Assembly (NCBI GenBank): GCA_045661305.1
Contig: JAZRFJ010000028.1
Location: 5,234-69,233 of the forward strand
Length of the DNA stretch: 64,000 bases
DNA from: Clostridia bacterium
GTDB taxonomy: Bacteria; Bacillota; Clostridia; UMGS1840
Direction of reading: 5' to 3'
Below the pieces are notes generated by a model. The model saw nothing but the letters and a program-made list of their open reading frames with translations. It ran no database searches and was not told the DNA's origin. The position numbers were made by a program, and so were the translations under genes. Numbering within the stretch: position 1 is the stretch's first letter; each line of letters begins with the position of its first letter. This document shows, in pieces, positions 288 through 51,773 of this stretch.

Positions 288-1022
288 ATGAAAAGAATAG
301 CTTTTATAACAGGCGGTGCAACAGGAATAGGAAAAGAAACAGCAAAAACACTCTGCAAAGACGGTTTTTTTGTTGTTATTTTCTGTAACAACAGTGAACA
401 AGACGCCGCTTTATTATGCGAAGAACTTAACGAAAAAGACTTTAATTCCTGCTATATTAAAGCGGATTTATCAGTTTTTGAGGAAGCGCAAAAAGCAGTA
501 GCTGATGCTTTAAAAATAACAGGCGGAGTTCATCTTCTTGTTAACAACGCAGGTATTGCACAGCAAAAGCTTTTTAGCGAAATAACACATGTTGACTGGC
601 ACACAATGATGAATACAAATCTTAACTCTGTTTTTTATATGTGTAAAGAGGTAGTTCCTCTTATGATTAAAAACAAATGCGGAAAAATAATTAATATTTC
701 TTCAATGTGGGGAATATGCGGTGCTTCCTGCGAAGTCCACTATTCAACCTCAAAAGCGGCAGTTATCGGCTTTACAAAATCACTTGCACAAGAACTTGGT
801 CCAAGCAATATACAGGTAAACTGTGTTGCACCAGGTGTTATAGATACAAAAATGAACAGTTGTTTTTCAGGGGAAACTATGGAAGAATTAAAAGAAATGA
901 CACCTCTTGGAAGAATAGGAAAACCCTCGGATGTTTCTGAACTTATTTCCTTTCTTGCAAGTGATAAAGCTGATTTTATTACAGGTCAGGTTATTAGCCC
1001 CAACGGTGGATTTTTGATTTAG
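288..1022 (+). CDS. short-chain dehydrogenase/reductase (FabG-like 3-oxoacyl-ACP reductase family)
   Basis: 244 aa ORF with TGGATGIG Rossmann motif, NNAG, and the catalytic S...YxxxK (YSTSKAA). AAGAGATAAT lies upstream of the ATG. Confidence 0.85.
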   Translation: MKRIAFITGGATGIGKETAKTLCKDGFFVVIFCNNSEQDAALLCEELNEKDFNSCYIKADLSVFEEAQKAVADALKITGGVHLLVNNAGIAQQKLFSEITHVDWHTMMNTNLNSVFYMCKEVVPLMIKNKCGKIINISSMWGICGASCEVHYSTSKAAVIGFTKSLAQELGPSNIQVNCVAPGVIDTKMNSCFSGETMEELKEMTPLGRIGKPSDVSELISFLASDKADFITGQVISPNGGFLI

Positions 1023-1052
1023 GGATGTTAAAAAAGTCCAGACCGCAAAAAA
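1022..1052. repeat. 31-bp direct repeat, copy 1 (GGGATGTTAAAAAAGTCCAGACCGCAAAAAA)
   Basis: 28/31 identical to 1238-1268, offset 216 bp. The pair brackets the structured repeat at 1126-1230. Copy 1 starts at the last base of the SDR stop codon. Confidence 0.8.
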
Positions 1053-1125
1053 ATCAAACCAAAAAAATAAAAGAAATTTTAACAGATTTTTCTTGTTAGA
1101 ATTTAAAAAGTTTTTTGATTTTTTT

Positions 1126-1230
1126 GCTATGAACAAACCTCGCCTCTCGGTGTACCTTTGTACACCTTCGGGTTTCCCAAAGCTTTGCTTTGGCTCGGTT
1201 TGTCCATTCTGAAGCTTTTTTTCCTATCCC
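1126..1230 (-). repeat. structured intergenic repeat family E, copy E1 (candidate three-way-junction small RNA, minus-strand sense)
   Basis: The reverse complement aligns over about 105 nt with 51564-51670. Hairpins at 1149-1166 (GGTGTAC/GTACACC) and 1177-1193 (CCAAAGC/GCTTTGG). Closing helix 1131-1138 with 1202-1209. Covariation against copy E2. Confidence 0.7.
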
Positions 1231-1237
1231 TAAAAAT

Positions 1238-1268
1238 GGAATGTTAAAAAAGTCAAGACCACAAAAAA
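1238..1268. repeat. 31-bp direct repeat, copy 2 (GGAATGTTAAAAAAGTCAAGACCACAAAAAA)
   Basis: See 1022-1052. It contains GTCAAGACC, which recurs exactly at 15392-15400 and 17649-17657. Confidence 0.8.
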
Positions 1269-1278
1269 GGATTAAAAA

Positions 1279-1322
1279 GGGGAATTGCCGAAAGTTACAA
1301 AAAATTCCCCCTCCCCCCTATA
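1279..1322 (-). repeat. G-rich hairpin repeat family G, copy G1
   Basis: GGGGAATT (1279-1286) pairs with AATTCCCC (1303-1310), followed by CTCCCCCCTATA. The reverse complement TATAGGGGGGAGGGGGAA...CTTTCGG...TTCCCC aligns with 21837-21871. Confidence 0.6.
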
Positions 1323-1347
1323 AAAAACAACAACAAGGAGAACTAAG

Positions 1348-1851
1348 ATGAACGAAAATTATAATCAAATAAGAATAGATGTAAGACTTGAAGACTATGA
1401 CGGAATAGTGTACAGACACTTCTGCCCATACTGCATGGAAGAAATTGAAAAATCATTGCCTTATGAGGAAAGCAGTATAGAATGTGATGTATGTAAAAAA
1501 ATCATAAATCTTAACTGGTCAAGCTATGTAGATGATATTGAAGACTATTTATCCGAAAAAATAAGATACAGTATAAAATCATCAAATGCCTACGATGATG
1601 AAGATTCGCTGACAGAAGCTTTGTGTGATGTTATCGAAGAAGTTTACCGTTCCGACGACCATGAAGAATGTTATTCGGTTGCAGAGGAAGTTGTGGAAAT
1701 AACAAGAGGCTACGAAGACGAGCATGATATTGCAAAAGAAATTATTGACATTCTCGATGTTCCGTCATTTTCAGAAGAAGACGCAGATAGCTTTTACGAA
1801 GACGATTATGAAGATGACTATAACTATAATGATGACGATGAAGAGTTTTAA
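1348..1851 (+). CDS. hypothetical, highly acidic protein with N-terminal CxxC...CxxC zinc-ribbon
   Basis: 167 aa ORF with a good RBS (AAGGAG 7 nt upstream). CPYC...CDVC motif. C-terminal half is very rich in D/E/Y (ends DDYEDDYNYNDDDEEF). No family recognised. Confidence 0.6.
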   Translation: MNENYNQIRIDVRLEDYDGIVYRHFCPYCMEEIEKSLPYEESSIECDVCKKIINLNWSSYVDDIEDYLSEKIRYSIKSSNAYDDEDSLTEALCDVIEEVYRSDDHEECYSVAEEVVEITRGYEDEHDIAKEIIDILDVPSFSEEDADSFYEDDYEDDYNYNDDDEEF

Positions 1852-3725: not shown

Positions 3726-4802
3726 GTGGTGGAAAATATAGAAACAAAAAAAAATAATTTTCAAAATTACAAAAAAAATGATAAGAAAAACAAAATTTTT
3801 AAATTTAAGTTTTATTCTCTTGTTTTCAGTATTTACATTATATTTGTAGGATATGCAAATTCGGTAGCTGAAAACGAGGTTTGCGTTTATTCAGATTTAA
3901 GAACTCAAAAACTTATTCCCTCAGGTCAGGCTGTCGCAATGAAATTAAAAACAAATGGAGTTTTGGTTGTAGGAGTAAAAAACGATGCAAATCTTCCCGC
4001 AAAAAAGGCAGGAATAAAAAACGGCGATATCATAACGATGGTAAATGATACAAAAGTTTTAAACACTGCCCATTTTGAAGAAATAATACAAGCTGCAGAT
4101 GAGAATGAAATTACGCTTTTCATAAAAAGAGATGACAAAATTTACAGTACAAATATTATTCCCCAAAAAAATAATGGTTTTTGCGAAATAGGTCTTTGGC
4201 TTCGGGACAGTGCAGCAGGAATAGGAACAGTTTCGTTTTATTCGAGTGACAAAAAGCATTTCTACGCACTGGGACATCCGATAGCTGACAGCGATACTCA
4301 AAAAAATTTTTCCGTAAGAACAGGAAGCTTAGAGCTTGTTGACATTCACGGTGCAAAAAAAGGTAAGAAAAACAATCCTGGGGAGCTTATAGGAACGATG
4401 TCCGATTACGAGATAGGAAGCATTTTAACTAATACAAATTCAGGAATTTACGGTAAAATCAAAGACAAGGGTGTAATACTTGAAAAACCTATCGAGGTAA
4501 TGAAAAAAGAAGAAGTCAAAGAAGGCAAAGCTTATATTTTCACAACTGTGAGCGACTGCGGAGTAGAAAAATTTGAAATAAAAATTTCAAAAATTTTAGA
4601 CAACAATAAAAACAAAGATTTCATTATAAAAATAACTGATAAAAAGCTTATAGAAAAAACAGGCGGAATAGTTCAGGGAATGTCGGGTTCACCGATAATT
4701 CAGAATGGCCGAATTGTGGGAGCTGTGACACATGTTTTTGTGAATGATCCAACAAGAGGTTATGGGATATTTATTGAAAATATGCTAGCGGCGTCATCAT
4801 AA
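3726..4802 (+). CDS. spoIVB: SpoIVB peptidase (S55 sporulation signalling serine protease)
   Basis: 358 aa with N-terminal membrane anchor, PDZ-like segment (GIKNGDIITMVND) and the S55 catalytic block GGIVQGMSGSPIIQNGRIVGAVTHVF. Non-ATG (GTG) start as in the track. Confidence 0.85.
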   Translation: MVENIETKKNNFQNYKKNDKKNKIFKFKFYSLVFSIYIIFVGYANSVAENEVCVYSDLRTQKLIPSGQAVAMKLKTNGVLVVGVKNDANLPAKKAGIKNGDIITMVNDTKVLNTAHFEEIIQAADENEITLFIKRDDKIYSTNIIPQKNNGFCEIGLWLRDSAAGIGTVSFYSSDKKHFYALGHPIADSDTQKNFSVRTGSLELVDIHGAKKGKKNNPGELIGTMSDYEIGSILTNTNSGIYGKIKDKGVILEKPIEVMKKEEVKEGKAYIFTTVSDCGVEKFEIKISKILDNNKNKDFIIKITDKKLIEKTGGIVQGMSGSPIIQNGRIVGAVTHVFVNDPTRGYGIFIENMLAASS

Positions 4803-5992: not shown

Positions 5993-6100
5993 GTGTCAGG
6001 TTCACCGATACTTCAAAATGGTAAAATTATTGGTGCAGTAACTCATGTGTTTGTAAATGACCCGACAAGAGGGTATGGGATTTTTATTGAGAATATGCTC
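5993..6100 (+). pseudogene. orphan fragment of a spoIVB 3' end (36 codons, no start, frame runs into unrelated sequence)
   Basis: Aligns codon-for-codon with 4680-4787 of the intact spoIVB ([36 protein letters not shown]). My manual alignment gives 21 mismatches in 108 nt, mostly third positions. Confidence 0.75.
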
Positions 6101-13417: not shown

Positions 13418-14347
13418 TTACTTTTTCTCTTCCGCTTGTTTTACCTGCTCGGTTTTTATCCCTAAAAACTCTGTTCTTATAAGCTCCTTTGTTTTTGGAA
13501 CATCACATATTACATATGAAGCCGTTCCGATGTAAAGCGGATTGTTTGGCATTTCATACATTCTGATACTGTCTTTACTAAGGGTATTTAAAATAGGAAG
13601 TAAATCTGTGAAGTTATAAAGTGCAACATTTGTTTTAAGATTTTTTTCTATTTCACTAAAAAGCTCAGGTGCTTTCGCAATCAAATCAGCATTAAGCTTC
13701 TGCTCATAAAGTGCTTTAACAAAATTCTGCTGTGCCTCAATTCTTCCCAAATCACCCGTAGGATATGACCGAAAACGACAGAACTGCTCCGATTTATCAC
13801 CATCAAGAAGCTGATATCCTGGGTATAGGTCAATATATAGTCCCTGGTCAGGGTCAGTATATTTCATTCTCTGCGGAACATCAATATAAACTCCGCCCAA
13901 AATATCTATGATTTTAGCAAATCCGCCCGGATTAACAACAGCATAATAATTTATAGGAAGCCCCGTAAGCTCTTTTACTTTAGCTAAAACGGCATCTACT
14001 CTTTGTCCCTCTTTTGCAGAAGCATAAACAGCATTTATTTTATTGTTCTGCGACCTTCCGATTGTTACTCTTGTATCTCTTGGAATACTCATTACATTAA
14101 GTACACTTCTTTTTGTATCAACAGAGGCAAGCATAATCGTATCTGTAAGAAGTCCGCCTTTGTCAGTTGCAAGAAGAAGCATATTTACTCTTCCGTCAAC
14201 CACCTTTTCGACCTCTGTAACACTCTGATTTTTTATAACAGGTTCAAGATACATAATTGCAGTATTTACTCCTGCAAAAACTGCAAAAATACAAAGTGCA
14301 ACCGAAATTATTCTTTTTACAATTTTTAAAAAAATTTTAAAATCCAT
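13418..14347 (-). CDS. LytR-CpsA-Psr (LCP) family cell-envelope glycopolymer transferase
   Basis: 309 aa with N-terminal TM anchor. Conserved LLLATDKGGLLTDTIMLASVD...SIPRDT...NKINAVYA and RFRSYPTGDLGRIEAQQNF blocks. Confidence 0.85.
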   Translation of the reverse strand: MDFKIFLKIVKRIISVALCIFAVFAGVNTAIMYLEPVIKNQSVTEVEKVVDGRVNMLLLATDKGGLLTDTIMLASVDTKRSVLNVMSIPRDTRVTIGRSQNNKINAVYASAKEGQRVDAVLAKVKELTGLPINYYAVVNPGGFAKIIDILGGVYIDVPQRMKYTDPDQGLYIDLYPGYQLLDGDKSEQFCRFRSYPTGDLGRIEAQQNFVKALYEQKLNADLIAKAPELFSEIEKNLKTNVALYNFTDLLPILNTLSKDSIRMYEMPNNPLYIGTASYVICDVPKTKELIRTEFLGIKTEQVKQAEEKK

Positions 14348-14372: not shown

Positions 14373-15239
14373 CTAATCTGTCTGTTTTGTAGTTTTTTTA
14401 AACACATCATCTATAAGCTTTTTTGTTTCCTCTTCATTCTGCACCATATAGGACGCTCCGCCTATATACTTAGGTGATGAGGGAAGCTGATAAGTATTGA
14501 GTGTTAAGTTCTTAAATTTATATAATGTTTTTGCAAATTTTGAAATATCCGACAGACCAATATCTGTTTTAAAATCGTCCTTTACCTTTTTATATATAGC
14601 AGGAAGCTTTGCGATTGTTTTTGCATTGAGTTTTTGTTCATAAAGTGCTTTTAAAAACTCTTGCTGTGCATGTATTCTTCCCAAATCAGCATTTGCATAT
14701 CCACTTCTGTACCTCACATACTGCTCTGCCATAGCACCGTCAAGATGTTGCATACCTTTATTAAGATGTATATAAAGTCCCTGGTCGGGGTCCTCATAGT
14801 GCATATTCATAGGAACATCAAAATCGACACCGCCAAGTGCATCTATGACATTTTTAAAACCGTCAGGGTGAATAATCACATAATTATCAATTTTTAAATC
14901 AAGCATGTCCTCCACTTTCTTTTTTACAAGCTGGGGACGCTTTTTCTCATCCTCTCTTTGATAAACGCTGTTTAGTTTTACATGTCTTCCATTATCAAGC
15001 ATAACTCTCGTATCACGCGGTAGCGACATAAGATTTAAGCTCTTGGTATGAGTATTTATGTTTGCAACCATAATGGTATCTGTAAGAAGGCGTCCTTTAT
15101 CCGTTGCCAGAATAAGAACATTTACATTTCCTTTTGTAAAAAAGCCTTTTGATAACATTATTGCCGACATAAGTATAAAAATTACTAAAGCAACACTCAT
15201 TATTTTTCTTAAATATCTGAAAAATAATCTATTATTCAT
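14373..15239 (-). CDS. LCP family protein, tandem paralog
   Basis: 288 aa with the same motif set (ILATDKGRLLTDTIMVANIN...SLPRDT...RYRSGYANADLGRIHAQQEF). Clearly paralogous to 13418-14347. Confidence 0.85.
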   Translation of the reverse strand: MNNRLFFRYLRKIMSVALVIFILMSAIMLSKGFFTKGNVNVLILATDKGRLLTDTIMVANINTHTKSLNLMSLPRDTRVMLDNGRHVKLNSVYQREDEKKRPQLVKKKVEDMLDLKIDNYVIIHPDGFKNVIDALGGVDFDVPMNMHYEDPDQGLYIHLNKGMQHLDGAMAEQYVRYRSGYANADLGRIHAQQEFLKALYEQKLNAKTIAKLPAIYKKVKDDFKTDIGLSDISKFAKTLYKFKNLTLNTYQLPSSPKYIGGASYMVQNEEETKKLIDDVFKKTTKQTD

Positions 15240-15363: not shown

Positions 15364-15414
15364 AGTGTTTCTCCTTTCTTTCGGAAGTTCGTGTCAAGAC
15401 CAGATTAAAAATTA

Positions 15415-15734: not shown

Positions 15735-15740
15735 TTCTTT

Positions 15741-15936
15741 ATATAAAGACTGTATAATCCGGATGCCAAGCATTTTTTATGAATTGACAACTCCGTTGTC
15801 ATGAATTGGCTCTGCCATGAATTCTCACTGACGCTCCATGAATTGAATTGCCTTAATGCACGAAGTGCAATTCATGAGCTGTAAGGCTCAATTCATGAAA
15901 CCTTTGATTTCAATTCATGCCGCAGGCAATTCATTG
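15741..15936 (+). repeat. repeat family R1, copy A: promoter-like module plus an array of short hairpins punctuated by CATGAATT (x4) then AATTCATG (x4)
   Basis: Direct-repeat partner at 18241-18438. Octamers start at 15779, 15801, 15817, 15838 and at 15869, 15890, 15912, 15928. Each inter-octamer segment is a small palindrome. The left end carries TGTATAAT on plus and TTGGCA-N17-TTATAT on minus. Confidence 0.85.
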
Positions 15937-15955
15937 CAGTCACAGACCGCATACG

Positions 15956-16123
15956 CTCGTGCCAAGTCAGGCGAACAGTGAATAATAGGACCTACTATTT
16001 TCTGTTCTTGTTTTCCTAAACAAAATCCATCAGAACCCGCAGGAATATTAGATTTTCCTGCCCGATATGTAAATATTTATTATCGGCAAACTAATCTTTT
16101 AAATTGTATGGACTTGACACAAG
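15956..16123. repeat. repeat family R2, copy A: 168-bp unit bounded by 13-bp terminal inverted repeats (MITE-like, switch-like, or structured RNA)
   Basis: CTCGTGCCAAGTC ... GACTTGACACAAG. Both ends are conserved with copy B and the centre has diverged apart from a covarying hairpin at 16039-16061. The unit ends 20 nt from the stop codon of 16143-16679. Confidence 0.8.
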
Positions 16124-16142
16124 TATGTAAACCCACTAAAAA

Positions 16143-16711: not shown

Positions 16712-16728
16712 TTCGACACAATTCTTAC
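16712..16728 (-). promoter_or_regulatory. Spo0A-box-like site (GTAAGAA ttg TGTCGAA) upstream of 16143-16679
   Basis: Perfect TGTCGAA on minus (16718-16712) with a degenerate partner 3 bp upstream. TGGTATATAAT (extended -10-like) follows immediately downstream. Confidence 0.4.
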
Positions 16729-16913
16729 TCGTGTCAAGTCAGGAGAACAGTGAATAATAGGAACTACTATTTTTGCCCTATTTTTTCAACTGTTTTTCTT
16801 TTAACACTTTTCCCTAGAACCCGTGAGAACACTGGATTTTCTCGCATTCGATAGTATATGTAAATATCAAAATCGGCAAACTAATCTTTTAAATTGTATG
16901 GACTTGACACGAG
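16728..16913. repeat. repeat family R2, copy B: 186-bp unit with perfect 13-bp terminal inverted repeats
   Basis: CTCGTGTCAAGTC (16728-16740) and GACTTGACACGAG (16901-16913) are exact reverse complements. Internal hairpin at 16823-16845. The unit ends 20 nt from the stop codon of 16933-17541. Confidence 0.85.
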
Positions 16914-16932
16914 TAACATGAATTTTAATTCT

Positions 16933-17644: not shown

Positions 17645-17729
17645 TTTGTCAAGACCGGCTAAAAAAATCACATCTGTATAAAAGCAAGCATATAATATAC
17701 AAAAAAGAAAAATTTTGTAGGTGATTTAT

Positions 17730-18212: not shown

Positions 18213-18240
18213 GCGATTTTATCTTGATATACGCTTTTTG

Positions 18241-18438
18241 ATATAAAGACTGTATAATCCGGATTCCAAGCTTGTTAAATGAATTGACAACTGTCGTTGT
18301 CATGAATTGGCTACGCCATGAATTCTCGCTTTGCTCCATGAATTGAATTGCCTTTTAAATGCACGAAGTGCAATTCATGAGTCGCAAGACTCAATTCATG
18401 AAATCTTTGATTTCAATTTATGCCGAAGGCAATTCATT
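18241..18438 (+). repeat. repeat family R1, copy B
   Basis: Collinear with 15741-15936 and in the same orientation. Differences cluster in hairpin loops or are compensated in stems. Lies 29 nt downstream of the sodC stop and is followed by an 11-bp perfect hairpin at 18438-18462. Confidence 0.85.
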
Positions 18439-18514
18439 GATTTCAAGCTTTGCTTGAAATCATTATATCACCTTTGCAATAAATTGTCAATTTTTTTAAC
18501 AAAATATACACAAT

Positions 18515-21800: not shown

Positions 21801-21836
21801 ATAATTTGTATTAATAAATAAAACTGTATTTTTCTC

Positions 21837-21929
21837 TATAGGGGGATGGGGGAACCTTTCGGTGTTTCCCCTTTGTCCCCCTATGACCCCTATCCCCCTC
21901 CTAGCGATCGCTCAATCGCCGCGAGGCTG
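21837..21929 (+). repeat. G/C-rich structured block containing repeat family G, copy G2
   Basis: TATAGGGGGATGGGGGAACCTTTCGGTGTTTCCCC aligns with the reverse complement of 1279-1322. The block is a local GC spike in an AT-rich genome. Further hairpins are GCGAT cgctca ATCGC and GCC gcga GGC, and it contains GCGATCGC. Confidence 0.6.
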
Positions 21930-21949
21930 AATGTCTTAATTTTATATGT

Positions 21950-22825
21950 TTACTTTATACTATCTAAAAATTCTTTCATGTTACTTGGTACTGCCTCTTT
22001 GTTTGAAACAACAAATCCGCTTACCTGCGAAGCGAAGTCCATACAGGTACACAAATCGTTTCCATTAAAATATTTAAAGAGAAACGCTGCTCCAAAGCTA
22101 TCTCCTGCACCTACGGTTGAAACTACCTCAACCTTTTCTGCCTTACAAATAAGCACTTTGTCATTTTTTATATCATACGCATATGAGCCGTCTTTTCCTG
22201 CAGTAATTATTATAATTTCAAGTTTGGGGAACTTCTCTTTTAATCTTACAAAGGCATCTTTTACTCCGTATATTTCTCCAAACACAAGCTTACACACAAT
22301 TGGAAGCTCCTCATCGCTTATTTTAACGATATCGGAATTTTCAAGACATAACATTACACTTTCCTTTGAATAAAAAGGAGGTCTTATGTTAAGGTCTGTA
22401 TATATTTTCCTGATTTTCTCGCTTTTTATAACCTTTTTTATCGCATCAGTATTATGTTTCCCACGCAAAGCCAGAGTTCCGAACACCAACACATCAAATT
22501 CTTCATTTAAAGTATCAGCATCAATATAATCATAAGCTACATCATTTTTTAAATCATATGACGGAACAAAATTCTTATCAAGTGTGACATCGCATCTGCC
22601 TGTAATCTTATCATTAAGTCTTGCGATATATTTTGTGTTTATACCCATAGACTTCATTTCTTCTACTGCTTTTTTTCCTAAATCGTCTTCACCGACAGCA
22701 GACATAACAAAAGCTTCACCACCTAATAAAGAAAAGTGGGACGCTAAATTAAGCGGTGCACCGCCAATGCAAGATTTGTCAGGATAAACATCGTATAAAA
22801 CTTCTCCGAAAGATAACAACTTCAT
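21950..22825 (-). CDS. PfkB-family carbohydrate kinase (fructokinase-like)
   Basis: 291 aa with N-terminal FGEVLYDV...GGAPLN and C-terminal VSTVGAGDSFGAAF (PfkB signature 2). Confidence 0.85.
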   Translation of the reverse strand: MKLLSFGEVLYDVYPDKSCIGGAPLNLASHFSLLGGEAFVMSAVGEDDLGKKAVEEMKSMGINTKYIARLNDKITGRCDVTLDKNFVPSYDLKNDVAYDYIDADTLNEEFDVLVFGTLALRGKHNTDAIKKVIKSEKIRKIYTDLNIRPPFYSKESVMLCLENSDIVKISDEELPIVCKLVFGEIYGVKDAFVRLKEKFPKLEIIIITAGKDGSYAYDIKNDKVLICKAEKVEVVSTVGAGDSFGAAFLFKYFNGNDLCTCMDFASQVSGFVVSNKEAVPSNMKEFLDSIK

Positions 22826-48854: not shown

Positions 48855-51233
48855 ATGAAATTACCTTTAAGCTGGATAAATGAATATACAGATATTTCAG
48901 ACATATCCTACAAACAGTATGAACACGCTCTTACAATGAGCGGCTCAAAGGTTGAGGGCTTTGAGGATATGGCTAAAGATATAGTAAATGTAAAAACAGG
49001 AAAAATAATAAGTATGGAAAAACACCCTGATGCTGACAGACTTACAGTATGCCAGGTTAATATGGGGGAAAAAATCGGAGTAATTCAGATTGTTACTGCC
49101 GCAACAAATATGAAAGAAAATGATATTGTTCCTGTTGCACTCCATAAGTCAACTATCAAAGGCGGAGCAAAAATTGAAAAAGGAAAATTAAGAGGTGTTT
49201 TATCTAACGGTATGTTCTGCTCAACAGATGAGCTTGGTATCGGTGAGCCTAATGTTAAAGCAACTGGACTTCTTATTCTCCCATCCGATGCACCGCTTGG
49301 TATGGATATTGTTGAATATTTAAAATTAAATGACGCAATTTTTGATTTTGAAATCACTTCAAACCGCCCTGACTGCCTTAGTGTAATCGGTCTTGCAAGA
49401 GAAACAGCCGCTACATTCGGAAGAGCTTTTAATGTGAAAAAGCCTGTTGTTAAAGAGCTTGCAGGCGGAGATATAAATAGCGAGTTGAAAGTTGATGTTG
49501 AAAATTTCGAGCTTTGCAGAAGATATACAGCGAGAGTTGTAAAAAATATTAAAATTGAAGAATCACCAGAGTGGCTTAAAAGACGCTTGATTGCCTGCGG
49601 AGTAAGACCGATAAACAATATAGTTGATATAACAAACTATGTTATGCTTGAATACGGTCAGCCTATGCACGCATTTGACATTAAAAACATAAAAGACAGT
49701 CACATAATCGTCAGAAACGCAAAAGAAAACGAAACTATCACCACTTTAGACGGTATTGAAAGACAGTTATCTTCCGAAATGCTTGTTATCTGTGATGCCG
49801 ATAAGCCTGTTGCTATTGCAGGTGTTATGGGCGGAGAATTTTCAGGAATAACTGAAGATACAAAAACAATCGTTTTTGAAAGTGCTGCCTTTAACGGTGC
49901 ATCAGTAAGAAAGACAGCTAAAAAAGTAGGTCTTAGAACAGAAGCTTCTGCAAGATATGAAAAAGGTCTTGACAAGGAAATGGTTGTTGATGCGTTAGAA
50001 AGAGCGTGCGAACTTATTGAAGAGCTTTCATGCGGTGAAGTTGTAAAAGGCGTTATCGACAGAAATAACGACGAAACAAAAGACATAAAAATAAAATTCG
50101 AGCCTGCAAGAATAAATGAATTTTTAGGTACATCAATTGATGAAAACGAAATGATAAAATCACTTGAGGCACTTGAGTTTGAAGTGAAAGACGGATATAT
50201 AATTCCGCCGTCATTTAGAATTGATATTGAATGCTTTAATGATATTGCAGAGGAAGTTGTAAGAATACACGGATACGATAAAATTCCATCATCTCCTATG
50301 CAGGGTTCAGGCTTTGAGGGCGGTCTCAACAAACAGCAACAACTTGAAAAAGAAGCTAAAATGACTTTGGCAAATTTAGGACTCAGTGAAATATATACTT
50401 ATTCCTTTGAAAGTCCAAAAGCATTTGATATGCTCCTTATCCCTGAAAATTCAGATTTAAGAAATACAGTAAACATCTTAAATCCGCTTGGCAGTGATAT
50501 GTCAATTATGCGTACAACACCGCTTTATGGTATGTTGTCTACACTTTTATTAAATGAGAATAAGCGTGCAAAAGAGGCGTATCTCTTCGAGGTTGCAAAA
50601 ACATATCAGAAAATAAATGGTGAACAGCTCCCGAAAGAAACACAAAACATTACAATCGGAATGTTTGGAAATGATGTTGATTTCTTTAAATTAAAAGGTG
50701 TATGCGAAGAATTACTCGATGTATTTTCTATAAAAAATGCTAAGTTTGAAGCGTGTGAAACTGCTCCGTCATTCCACCCATACCAGACAGCAAAAATACT
50801 TTATAACGGTGAAGAAGTGGGTATAATGGGACAGATTAACCCGACAGTAAGAAATAATTTCAACATAGAAAATCCTGTTTTCTGTGCAATTATCTATTTC
50901 ACAAAAATCTGTGAGCTTGACATTGAAACTGTAAAATACAAACAGCTTAACCGTTTCCCTCAAAGTGAAAAAGATTTCAGCGTTGTTGTAGATGAAGATA
51001 TAACAGTTGATATGATTAAAGAAGTAGCTAAGAAAACTGCCGGTGAAATGCTTACCTCAATTGAGCTTTTTGATATTTATAAGGGAAGTCAGATACCAGA
51101 GGGCAAAAAGAGTGTTTCTTTCACATTTACTCTTGAAAATTATGAAAGAACTCTTACTGACGAAGAAACAAACGGTATGCTGGGTAAGATTATCGAAAGT
51201 GTAAAAGAAGCTTTCGGAGCAGAATTAAGATAA
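48855..51233 (+). CDS. pheT: phenylalanine-tRNA ligase beta subunit
   Basis: 792 aa. MKLPLSWINEY start, tRNA-binding, B3/4, B5 and FDX-ACB domains in order. Confidence 0.97.
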   Translation: MKLPLSWINEYTDISDISYKQYEHALTMSGSKVEGFEDMAKDIVNVKTGKIISMEKHPDADRLTVCQVNMGEKIGVIQIVTAATNMKENDIVPVALHKSTIKGGAKIEKGKLRGVLSNGMFCSTDELGIGEPNVKATGLLILPSDAPLGMDIVEYLKLNDAIFDFEITSNRPDCLSVIGLARETAATFGRAFNVKKPVVKELAGGDINSELKVDVENFELCRRYTARVVKNIKIEESPEWLKRRLIACGVRPINNIVDITNYVMLEYGQPMHAFDIKNIKDSHIIVRNAKENETITTLDGIERQLSSEMLVICDADKPVAIAGVMGGEFSGITEDTKTIVFESAAFNGASVRKTAKKVGLRTEASARYEKGLDKEMVVDALERACELIEELSCGEVVKGVIDRNNDETKDIKIKFEPARINEFLGTSIDENEMIKSLEALEFEVKDGYIIPPSFRIDIECFNDIAEEVVRIHGYDKIPSSPMQGSGFEGGLNKQQQLEKEAKMTLANLGLSEIYTYSFESPKAFDMLLIPENSDLRNTVNILNPLGSDMSIMRTTPLYGMLSTLLLNENKRAKEAYLFEVAKTYQKINGEQLPKETQNITIGMFGNDVDFFKLKGVCEELLDVFSIKNAKFEACETAPSFHPYQTAKILYNGEEVGIMGQINPTVRNNFNIENPVFCAIIYFTKICELDIETVKYKQLNRFPQSEKDFSVVVDEDITVDMIKEVAKKTAGEMLTSIELFDIYKGSQIPEGKKSVSFTFTLENYERTLTDEETNGMLGKIIESVKEAFGAELR

Positions 51234-51267: not shown

Positions 51268-51510
51268 ATGGATGGAACAAAGTTAGTAGACATTCCAAAG
51301 AATGATGACAAAAAAATAAAAGAGATTATTTTTTCAGTTTACGAATCATTAAAGGAAAAAGGCTATAATCCTATCAGCCAGTTGGTTGGATATATCATTT
51401 CAGGTGACCCTACCTACATAACAAGCTACAATAATGCAAGAGCATTGATAGGAAGACTTGAACGCGACGACATTTTAGAAGAACTTTTAAAAAGTTATCT
51501 TAGTAATTAA
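51268..51510 (+). CDS. IreB/UPF0297 family regulatory phosphoprotein
   Basis: About 80 aa. [25 protein letters not shown] is diagnostic. ATG at 51268 with RBS AAAGGTGG. Confidence 0.85.
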
Positions 51511-51516
51511 AAAACA

Positions 51517-51566
51517 AAAAAGGGCTGTGGCAAAAATGTTTTAATTTTTGTCACAGCCCTTTTGGG
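51517..51566 (+). terminator. long terminator hairpin downstream of the IreB-family gene
   Basis: AAAAGGGCTGTGGCAAAAAT / ATTTTTGTCACAGCCCTTTT, a 20-bp stem with one G-T pair, then TTTT. Confidence 0.8.
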
Positions 51567-51670
51567 ACGAAGAAAAAATAGTGCAGAACGGACAAGCTGA
51601 GCCAAAGCGTAAGCTTTGGGGTACCCGAAGCTGTATGTGTATACAGCGAGAGGCGAAGTTTGTTCGTAGC
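51564..51670 (+). repeat. structured intergenic repeat family E, copy E2 (candidate three-way-junction small RNA, plus-strand sense)
   Basis: P1 51586-51593 with 51658-51665. P2 51602-51619 (CCAAAGC GTAA GCTTTGG, GNRA loop). P3 51630-51647 (GCTGTAT gtgt ATACAGC). Aligns with the reverse complement of 1126-1230. Confidence 0.7.
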
Positions 51671-51773
51671 ATAAAGCGTTTTGTTTATTCCTCAAAATTA
51701 TAATATTGAAAAAATCCCATCATGATTTTTTATGCTTTATGCGTTCTGTGCATTTTTGCACAGTCCCTATTTA

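Follow-up and report, generated by a model that had tools for sequence, protein, structure and literature searches.

The window analysed here, a 64-kb stretch of DNA from a Clostridia bacterium (contig JAZRFJ010000028.1), contains a tract at positions 1022-1347 in which two 31-bp direct repeats bracket a structured element just downstream of a gene for a short-chain dehydrogenase/reductase (SDR). This element, E1, is a member of a dispersed, non-coding, multi-copy repeat family, here called E, which occupies terminator regions at the 3' ends of genes in Oscillospirales-type gut Clostridia. The first 31-mer is the 5' module of the E unit. The second is the same module reiterated after the tail of the unit; it is a terminal redundancy, with which a second but truncated unit begins, and not duplicated host DNA. 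The tract is made up of a complete unit, 31 nt of another and, by homology, the 3' end of an unrelated repeat, the G element (Table 1). The E family is previously undescribed and has no counterpart in Rfam or in the searchable literature.

The direct repeat as part of a folded unit

An earlier note on this DNA, made from the sequence, had reported the position, identity and spacing of the two 31-mers, and all three are as reported: copy 1 (GGGATGTTAAAAAAGTCCAGACCGCAAAAAA, 1022-1052) and copy 2 (GGAATGTTAAAAAAGTCAAGACCACAAAAAA, 1238-1268) are identical at 28 of 31 positions and start 216 bp apart. No further match with up to 3 mismatches exists in the window, and none of 100 dinucleotide shuffles (0/100) produced a match to the pair. 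Copy 1 was also correctly placed against the SDR stop codon (TAG, 1020-1022), with which it shares one base, the first G of the element. The proposal that the repeats enclose a structured element was borne out as well, since the core (1120-1240) adopts a three-way junction with a folding energy of -32.8 kcal/mol (z = -3.8). For positions 1015-1350 as a whole the value is -86.4 kcal/mol (z = -5.3), and in this fold UUUAGGGAU (1019-1027) closes the structure with AUCCCUAAA (1226-1234), and GCAAAAAAAUCAAA (1045-1058) forms helix P2 with UUUGAUUUUUUUGC (1114-1127). Terminator prediction across 1022-1347 returned none. Other readings of the 31-mer were discarded: it has no acceptable -35/-10 promoter pair on either strand, a sigma-G or sigma-H promoter was ruled out by inspection, and a start-stop (ATG-TAA) or Shine-Dalgarno reading of GGGGATGTAA fails because the motif is not conserved, with CTG and CCG variants.

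Related units are widespread. The core pattern AACAAACNTCGCCTCTCG-N12-26-CTTCGGG occurs at no fewer than 118 loci in a one-genome-per-species collection, and the carriers among the matches listed are all metagenome-assembled genomes (MAGs) of gut or rumen Clostridia (Acutalibacteraceae, Oscillospiraceae, Congzhengia, Fimenecus, Aphodoplasma), with several E copies per MAG and many copies at contig ends. A hidden Markov model (HMM) of the unit gives 139 matches in the fetched loci and the window; in the window itself it finds only E1, a second unit, E2, and, weakly, an orphan module at 1235-1295. Units measure 215-270 nt with 7-9 helices, and the whole element including its terminator about 290 bp. 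The 5' module is kept across genomes and loci: that of locus L082 (GGGGGATGTTAAAAAAGTCCAGACCGCAAAAAGGC) agrees with copy 1 at 30/31 positions by hand count on the sequences, and a second subfamily has GGGGCTGTAGCAAAATGCACAGACCGCATAAAGC. What the earlier note took for duplicated host or target DNA is thereby identified as the conserved 5' end of a family of repeats that many genomes carry at unrelated loci. In the MAG JAQXGO, some ten near-identical copies extend from (A)AGGRGCCGTAGCAAAATGCACAGACCGCATAAAGC through the terminator end GGAGCCGTAGCAAAA...TTTTGCTACGGCTCC between unrelated flanks, in which no target duplication is visible, and the tandem units of this MAG have the module in common.

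Searches of other collections returned next to nothing. Rfam 15 gave no match in the 64-kb window at the gathering score, and at E <= 10 only chance-level matches on E1, E2 and L082; a scan for tRNA and tmRNA gave none. There was no E match in plasmid and phage collections and one among 2.9 million viral contigs. A metagenome scan with the SDR recovered only relatives of at most 57% identity, none of them with E, and nothing relevant emerged from the literature when E was searched by keywords and sequence strings.

Covariation across 61 non-redundant units supports the fold. Of the 35 pairs in the RNAalifold prediction, 22 show compensatory changes. For this structure, 96.0% of alignment cells are paired, against 85.2% in shuffled alignments and 25-45% when the partners are slid, and double changes are found in 229 cells against 63 after shuffling. 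With the P1 extension and P1b added (45 pairs), the corresponding values are 93.6% against 84.8% and 30-48%, and 238 against 64.5 cells. For either structure, 0 of 500 shuffles reach the observed count. All of the P2 pairs covary (10/10), and P1b (CAGA:UCUG) is 95.9% paired with two covarying pairs; in the CYGGA subfamily this strand pairs with UCCAR. A G.U pair in P4 is kept in 54/61 units and a U.G pair in 61/61, and the fold is therefore specific to the strand drawn. The unit is thus organised as an interrupted closing helix (P1a GGGR:YCCC, A-run:U-run, P1b CAGA:UCUG), a P2 side arm carrying a variable hairpin, and an invariant three-way junction. The 31-mer is conserved because it supplies the 5' strands of P1a, of the A:U extension, of P1b and of P2.

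Terminators, gene ends and polymorphic sites

A strong hairpin with a T-run follows 61 of 86 units, and the 5' arm of this terminator equals the first ~14 nt of the module (e.g. GGGACTGTAAAAAAC...GTTTTTTACAGTCCC in L028). The reiterated module has three fates. In about 70% of the family members its first ~14 nt have been reshaped to serve as the 5' arm of a terminator belonging to the element; in tandem arrays it is the start of the next unit (true tandem units at L074, L046 and L113); and in roughly one fifth of the copies, including E1, it is a truncated orphan. After about 16 of 75 units, the unit's own module is repeated for 21-34 nt with locus-specific variants and variable end points (34/34 in L101, 33/33 in L116, 24 in L081, 23 in L033, 28/31 at E1), and across the family the reiterated part ranges from 9 to 34 nt. 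The architecture of E1 recurs at L081, L058, L104, L112, L116, L101 and L033, and at the first four of these an unrelated hairpin follows the orphan module, as it does in the window. As for copy 2 itself, positions 3-63 of the unit HMM align to 1235-1295 (E = 2.6e-4; E = 2.5e-5 with an HMM of the module); it has no P2 partner downstream, CAGA is changed to AAGA, and it is identical in the relative L200. Another phase of array is seen at L101 5135-5348, where two tandem copies of the 3' half of E only (HMM positions 147-253) lie about 121 nt apart. Terminators of the family type are almost never found apart from E, which rules them out as a pre-existing dispersed target. The 3' arm of the terminator forms an inverted repeat with the 5' end of the element; of 75 copies, 24 score at least 12/18 (14-17 bp), another 13 score 9-11, and the remaining 38 stay below 9. 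E1 reaches 4 and E2 11.

E is strongly confined to gene 3' ends, and its orientation is only modestly biased. Counting open reading frames (ORFs) of at least 80 codons, 64 of 88 units begin between -45 and +8 nt from a stop codon on the same strand (mode 0-9 nt), against 6.9% of random positions, and a convergent gene follows 43 of 64 units. At least one gene end is abutted by 40 of the 47 fully assessable units, which divide into 20 at convergent sites, 14 co-directional sense, 6 co-directional antisense, 3 divergent and 4 unclear. A strong co-orientation with the upstream gene, as the 64/88 would suggest, was not retained: it is partly automatic, because a convergent site leaves a gene by the 5' module on the same strand, and the cross-tabulation gives 14 to 6.

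The history of E1 was followed by comparing SDR homologues at 94, 84, 78 and 75% identity with their contigs, all of which keep the gene order rpiB, SDR, acidic gene of ~169 aa. The spacer from the SDR stop to the next gene, 325 nt in the window (E1, copy 2 and G1, the fragment of the G element), is 183 nt in L200 (94%), where the module is reduced to GGATGTTAAAAAG, P2 and the core are deleted, and the tail, copy 2 and G1 are intact. It is 239 nt in L201 (84%), which keeps the module, the variable hairpin and the P2 3' strand, has lost the core, the tail and copy 2, and has a nearly full G element next. In the more distant relatives, the spacer shrinks to 23 nt (TGTCAAAAAAGGAGAATTGAACT; L202, 78%) and 29 nt (TTTTAATAAGAATAATACGGAGGCACCAT; L203/L204, 75%), the ribosome-binding site (RBS) lying 23-29 nt from the SDR stop. 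Because the empty-site spacers are this short, E1, copy 2 and G1 together represent an insertion of about 300 nt between the SDR stop and the RBS, in agreement with the composite insertion that the earlier note had proposed, G1 coming from a second, unrelated repeat family. A single 31-mer had been predicted for the empty site, but L202, L203 and L204 hold none; the likeness of L202 to the module start is limited to TGTCAAAAAAGG, which resembles TGTTAAAAAAGT, with TGTCAAAAAAG in common with TGTTAAAAAAG. The insertion is limited to the nearer relatives, and E1 is decayed in the two nearest, L200 and L201, which argues against an essential role at the SDR site, though not elsewhere. In L203, an E copy is present just downstream of the acidic gene (4399-4552), although the spacer between SDR and acidic gene is empty.

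The second unit, E2, begins 3 nt past the stop of the phosphoglucomutase gene (pgm) and faces ireB. It differs from E1 by compensatory changes in hairpin 1 (GGUGUAC/GUACACC to CUGUAU/AUACAG) and in the closing helix (GGGAU/AUCCC to GGGAC/GUCCC). The 5' arm of its own terminator (GGGCTGTG...) repeats the start of its 5' module (GGGACTGTG...). Since E2 carries its own flanking repeat, the direct repeat belongs to the element type and not to the SDR locus. E2 is strain-specific. An exact IreB look-up yielded six conspecific contigs, and E2 is absent from 6/6: five have GGGACTGTG-TTTTG-CACAGTCCC and a T-run, and the sixth has a different terminator. One of the six, L205, shares 97.5-98.3% identity with 6 kb of the window and has 49 nt between pgm and the convergent ireB, with 22 nt in place of window positions 51520-51758. 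The arms of the native terminator equal the outermost parts of E2 (5' GGGACTGTG...GCACAG and the tail GTCCC, together P1) and nearly equal those of E2's own terminator (GGGCTGTG.../...CACAGCCC). The simplest single event would be that the whole cassette took the place of the native hairpin by way of short matches at both ends. In two further relatives (L206 4223-4494, L207 4223-4493; pgm 89-91%), pgm is followed by a conserved leader of 272 nt upstream of a gene for a P-type cation ATPase, with a promoter-like TTGACA...TACAAT and then GGGGAGTAG..GCGCTTTTT..GCGTGTCAAGTCAAC...; this leader could be a regulatory RNA.

The G element and other repeats of the window

The G-rich hairpin that the earlier note had placed outside copy 2 is present, its paired arms being GGGGAATT (1279-1286) and AATTCCCC (1303-1310); a C-run then extends to 1318, and there is no U-tract. 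Judging by homology to window positions 21828-21870 (- strand), L201 and L200, this G1 is the 3' end of the G element (CAGCCTCGCGGCG...GAGCGATCG.TAGGAGGGGG...GGGGAAACACCGAAAGGTTCCCCC.TCCCCCTATA), a repeat family unrelated to E. The G element of L201 (3849-3959) is 88% identical to the full copy of the window, and fragments of the G1 type are found at window positions 1270-1322 and in L200.

A link had also been proposed between the 1-kb and the 16-kb repeats through the 9-mer GTC[C/A]AGACC, which contains the P1b strand. The sequence GTCAAGACC occurs 4 times in the window against 0.28 expected, and among the 9-mers of the two repeats that contain G+C, no other has 3 extra matches; it was singled out afterwards from some 40 candidates. 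The family consensus at this position is GTCCAGACC or GCACAGACC, and the A of copy 2 is a minority variant. Both recurrences reported in the islet near 16 kb exist, one base away from the coordinates first given, but the link itself is not supported: the islet sites match neither the extended module pattern (<=3 mismatches) nor the module HMM (E <= 100). [quoted passage not shown] The fetched loci contain no relative of any islet repeat.

Two repeats of about 205 bp (15735-15940 and 18235-18440; 88% identical) flank this islet of small genes. They contain five or six short G+C hairpins, which are spaced by CATGAATT over the first half and by AATTCATG over the second. Between the first of these hairpin repeats and a MITE-like element, CACAGACCGCATA (15941-15953) is identical to the core that the second E subfamily has in its module (TGCACAGACCGCATAAAGC); it could be a piece of an E module or a chance match. 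The window also holds two pairs of tandem paralogues, namely the SpoIVB-like peptidase genes (4681-4786 and 5994-6099, 82% identical over 106 nt) and the LytR-CpsA-Psr genes (13418..14347 and 14373..15239, segments 78-81% identical). Finally, the 167-aa protein encoded downstream of the tract (1348-1851) combines a CxxC...CxxC motif at the N terminus with a very acidic tail; its orthologues have no recorded Pfam match, and exact-protein look-ups of the SDR and of this ORF returned no record.

Table 1. Positions of E1, E2, the G element and associated features in the 64-kb window
Feature	Position	Strand	Basis
SDR/FabG-like reductase gene	288..1022	+	ORF; Pfam adh_short/KR on orthologues
5' module of unit E1 (copy 1)	1022..1052	+	Predicted pairings; family conservation; P1, P1b and P2 covariation
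P1a, GGGAU (5' strand) with AUCCC	AUCCC 1226-1230	+	Predicted fold
P1 extension, A-run with U-run	1030-1035 with 1216-1222	+	Predicted fold
P1b, CAGA with UCUG	1039-1042 with 1208-1211	+	Predicted fold, covariation
P2 5' strand GCAAAAAAAUCAAA	1045-1058	+	Predicted fold
P2a, variable hairpin within P2: AAATTTTAACAG, loop, TTGTTAGAATTT	1074..1104	+	Equivalents of other sequence in relatives
P2 3' strand TTTGATTTTTTTGC	1114..1127	+	Compensatory changes in all 10 P2 pairs
Conserved core	1128..1211	+	Fold, family alignment, covariation
P2b, AUG:CAU (within core)		+	
P3, AACAAAC with GUUUGU (within core)	1132-1138 with 1198-1203	+	
P4, GCCU:GGGU, with conserved G.U and U.G (within core)		+	
Core hairpin 1	1149-1166	+	
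Core hairpin 2	1177-1193	+	
E1 3' tail, U-run then CCUAUCCCUAAAAAU; P1 3' strand	1212..1237	+	
Copy 2, orphan 5' module of truncated second unit	1238..1268	+	HMM matches; same architecture elsewhere
G1, 3' fragment of G element (by homology)	1270..1322	+	Hairpin GGGGAATT/AATTCCCC plus CTCCCCCCTATA
RBS AAGGAG and gene for 167-aa acidic CxxC protein (start 1348)	1335..1851	+	
GTCAAGACC sites	1252, 15393-15401, 17648-17656	+	
GTCAAGACC site inside pheT	49965-49973	-	
MITE-like elements, ~190 bp, two copies ~75% identical, ends a 15-bp inverted repeat TACTCGTGTCAAGTC	15954-16127, 16726-16917		
Full G element, ~110 nt, G-rich, right after the stop of ORF 21950..22825 (-)	21828-21937	-	
E2, diverged second unit, 67% identical to E1	51555..51770 (BLAST 51538-51769)	-	Local BLAST
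E2's own intrinsic terminator: GGGCTGTGaCAAAAAT, loop, ATTTTTGcCACAGCCC, T-run	51508..51560	-	

Mode of spread, known systems and implications

The best explanation, and one we consider probable, is that E is a structured, terminator-linked repeat family with module reiteration, a 3'-end cassette that spreads by copying. The element would be transcribed as the 3' untranslated region (UTR) of the gene abutting its 5' module, and would be a selfish cassette that brings or replaces the terminator and is tolerated there. Its spread may proceed by copying into terminator-like sites that have a short match to its end modules. E2 would be an example, the native terminator arms GGGACTGTG and CACAGTCCC matching its own ends. 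The terminal redundancy would then be a by-product of this copying or of unequal recombination.

Several observations weigh against this explanation. Neither a transposase nor a reverse transcriptase nor any other partner came to light, and how E spreads is a matter of conjecture; no transposase was seen adjoining any copy, and none of the 139 HMM matches in the fetched loci and the window is a split copy enclosing an ORF. A fixed-length target-site duplication is absent both from the JAQXGO flanks and from the empty sites. The E1 core is deleted in L200 despite an SDR that is 94% identical. For E2, a deletion in the other strains is possible, although it needs extra changes to give their hairpin. 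The orientation bias (14 sense to 6 antisense in co-directional pairs) is modest, and transcription of E as a 3' UTR is accordingly not universal. Lastly, the junction nucleotides are invariant across bacterial families while the helices covary; this exceeds the need of a purely selfish repeat and hints at a function or at a structural requirement of the mobilising machinery.

Two alternatives are doubtful in our view. One is that E represents a new class of terminator-homing element whose fold is needed for propagation via an RNA or circular intermediate, or else a widespread RNA domain of 3' UTRs that has a conserved partner, protein or ligand, and is also mobile. In the first version, P1 would join the ends of the unit, and copying for more than one round would yield variable redundancy, tandem arrays and partial end units. 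The other is a DNA-level MITE or a palindrome-associated element of the IS200/IS605 type, in which the fold would serve single-stranded DNA recognition by a transposase encoded elsewhere and the RNA would be irrelevant. The small size, the lack of coding capacity, the copy number and the presence/absence polymorphism of E1 and E2 are consistent with such an element, as are the 14-17-bp inverted repeats of 24/75 copies and the hairpins at both ends of E2, on one strand. However, half of the copies are without good inverted repeats, no transposase stands next to any copy, and there is neither a fixed target-site duplication nor a conserved target tetra- or pentanucleotide, the left flanks being A-rich but variable. 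The majority gene strand of 8-kb loci, taken as a proxy for the replication strand, also shows no bias (28 loci with >60% of coding bases on the strand of E, 22 with <40%, 26 intermediate), which disfavours an IS200/IS605-type mechanism tied to the replication strand; GC skew is uninformative on replication direction, because it tracks gene orientation.

Still less probable is a target-site duplication or att-type scar, in which E1 would have duplicated a host 31-mer or recombined at a core common with the islet. It is true that direct repeats bracket the unit, that the tract is an insertion, that both types of empty site hold a short match to the module start right after the stop (TGTCAAAAAAG in L202, GGGACTGTG at the E2 site) and that locus-specific variants are common to the repeats flanking a unit. 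But the empty sites of L202, L203 and L204 are without the 31-mer, the module stands at unrelated loci and genomes and is hence part of the element, the repeated part has no constant length (9-34 nt) and stops at different points, and the islet 9-mers do not extend to the module.

Least probable of all is a conditional terminator of the riboswitch or attenuator type. Here the tail (region 2) would have two possible partners, the module (region 1) and the reiterated module (region 3), so that P1 competes with an antiterminator under the control of a ligand at the junction or a ribosome on the stop codon. In its favour, region 3 resembles region 1 and doubles as the terminator's 5' arm, and each of the two is complementary to the tail, which by inspection could pair with one or the other; the junction nucleotides do not vary, and the element begins 0-10 nt past the stop codon. 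But a convergent gene after 43/64 units leaves nothing downstream to regulate, the copies are numerous, near-identical within a genome and tandem, some lack a terminator, and the E1 core is dispensable in L200. In addition, the helix between tail and region 3 is imperfect, unlike the near-perfect helix of the terminator.

In lifestyle, E is closest to repeats of the REP, BOX and MITE types, from which it departs in defining features (palindrome size, fixed duplication), and no cognate transposase came to light among its copies in the fetched loci. REP and BIME (REPIN) sequences of enterobacteria and pseudomonads are extragenic, simple imperfect palindromes of 20-40 nt, linked to RAYT transposases, single or arrayed, and transcribed as 3' UTR. 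Like them, E is multi-copy, extragenic and structured, and lies past stop codons and between convergent genes; it differs in that its 215-270 nt form a multi-helix fold with an invariant three-way junction, in bringing a terminator of its own and in reiterating its 5' module. The BOX elements of Streptococcus pneumoniae are built of boxA-boxB(n)-boxC modules without a built-in terminator; no transposase is known for them, and a strict tie to gene 3' ends is not documented. They are, as E, modular, non-coding, multi-copy intergenic repeats with reiterated modules and a stable RNA fold, but the sequence and host are unrelated and covariation is far stronger in E. With MITEs such as Correia, which can supply terminators, and RUP, E has in common its size of about 290 bp, its non-coding nature, inverted-repeat ends in one third to one half of the copies and insertion polymorphism. 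By contrast, E has no target duplication of fixed length, its right inverted repeat is the 3' arm of the terminator, and its interior is structurally constrained.

The features observed also speak against a riboswitch, a class C intron or an IS200/IS605 derivative. Group II introns of class C (IIC) are mobile structured RNAs that home to intrinsic terminators, and E is also mobile, RNA-structured and terminator-associated. However, at about 220 nt it is several-fold too small, it has no domain V/VI and no intron match in Rfam, and it precedes its terminator instead of following one. As in riboswitches and trp-type attenuators, the P1 5' strand and the terminator 5' arm are alike and both complement the intervening segment, but E is not found in 5' leaders, is multi-copy and mostly faces a convergent gene.

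An odd direct repeat has thus led to a defined, large repeat family with strong covariation at the 3' ends of genes of uncultured gut and rumen Clostridia. The combination of an invariant junction with covarying helices is atypical for a selfish repeat. Because many of its copies lie at contig ends, E breaks MAG assemblies. It supplies or replaces terminators, and its variation between strains affects the annotation of 3' UTRs and terminators and is usable as a strain marker. Finally, reiteration of the module yields both the terminator and the direct repeat, which provides a handle on how elements without a transposase spread.

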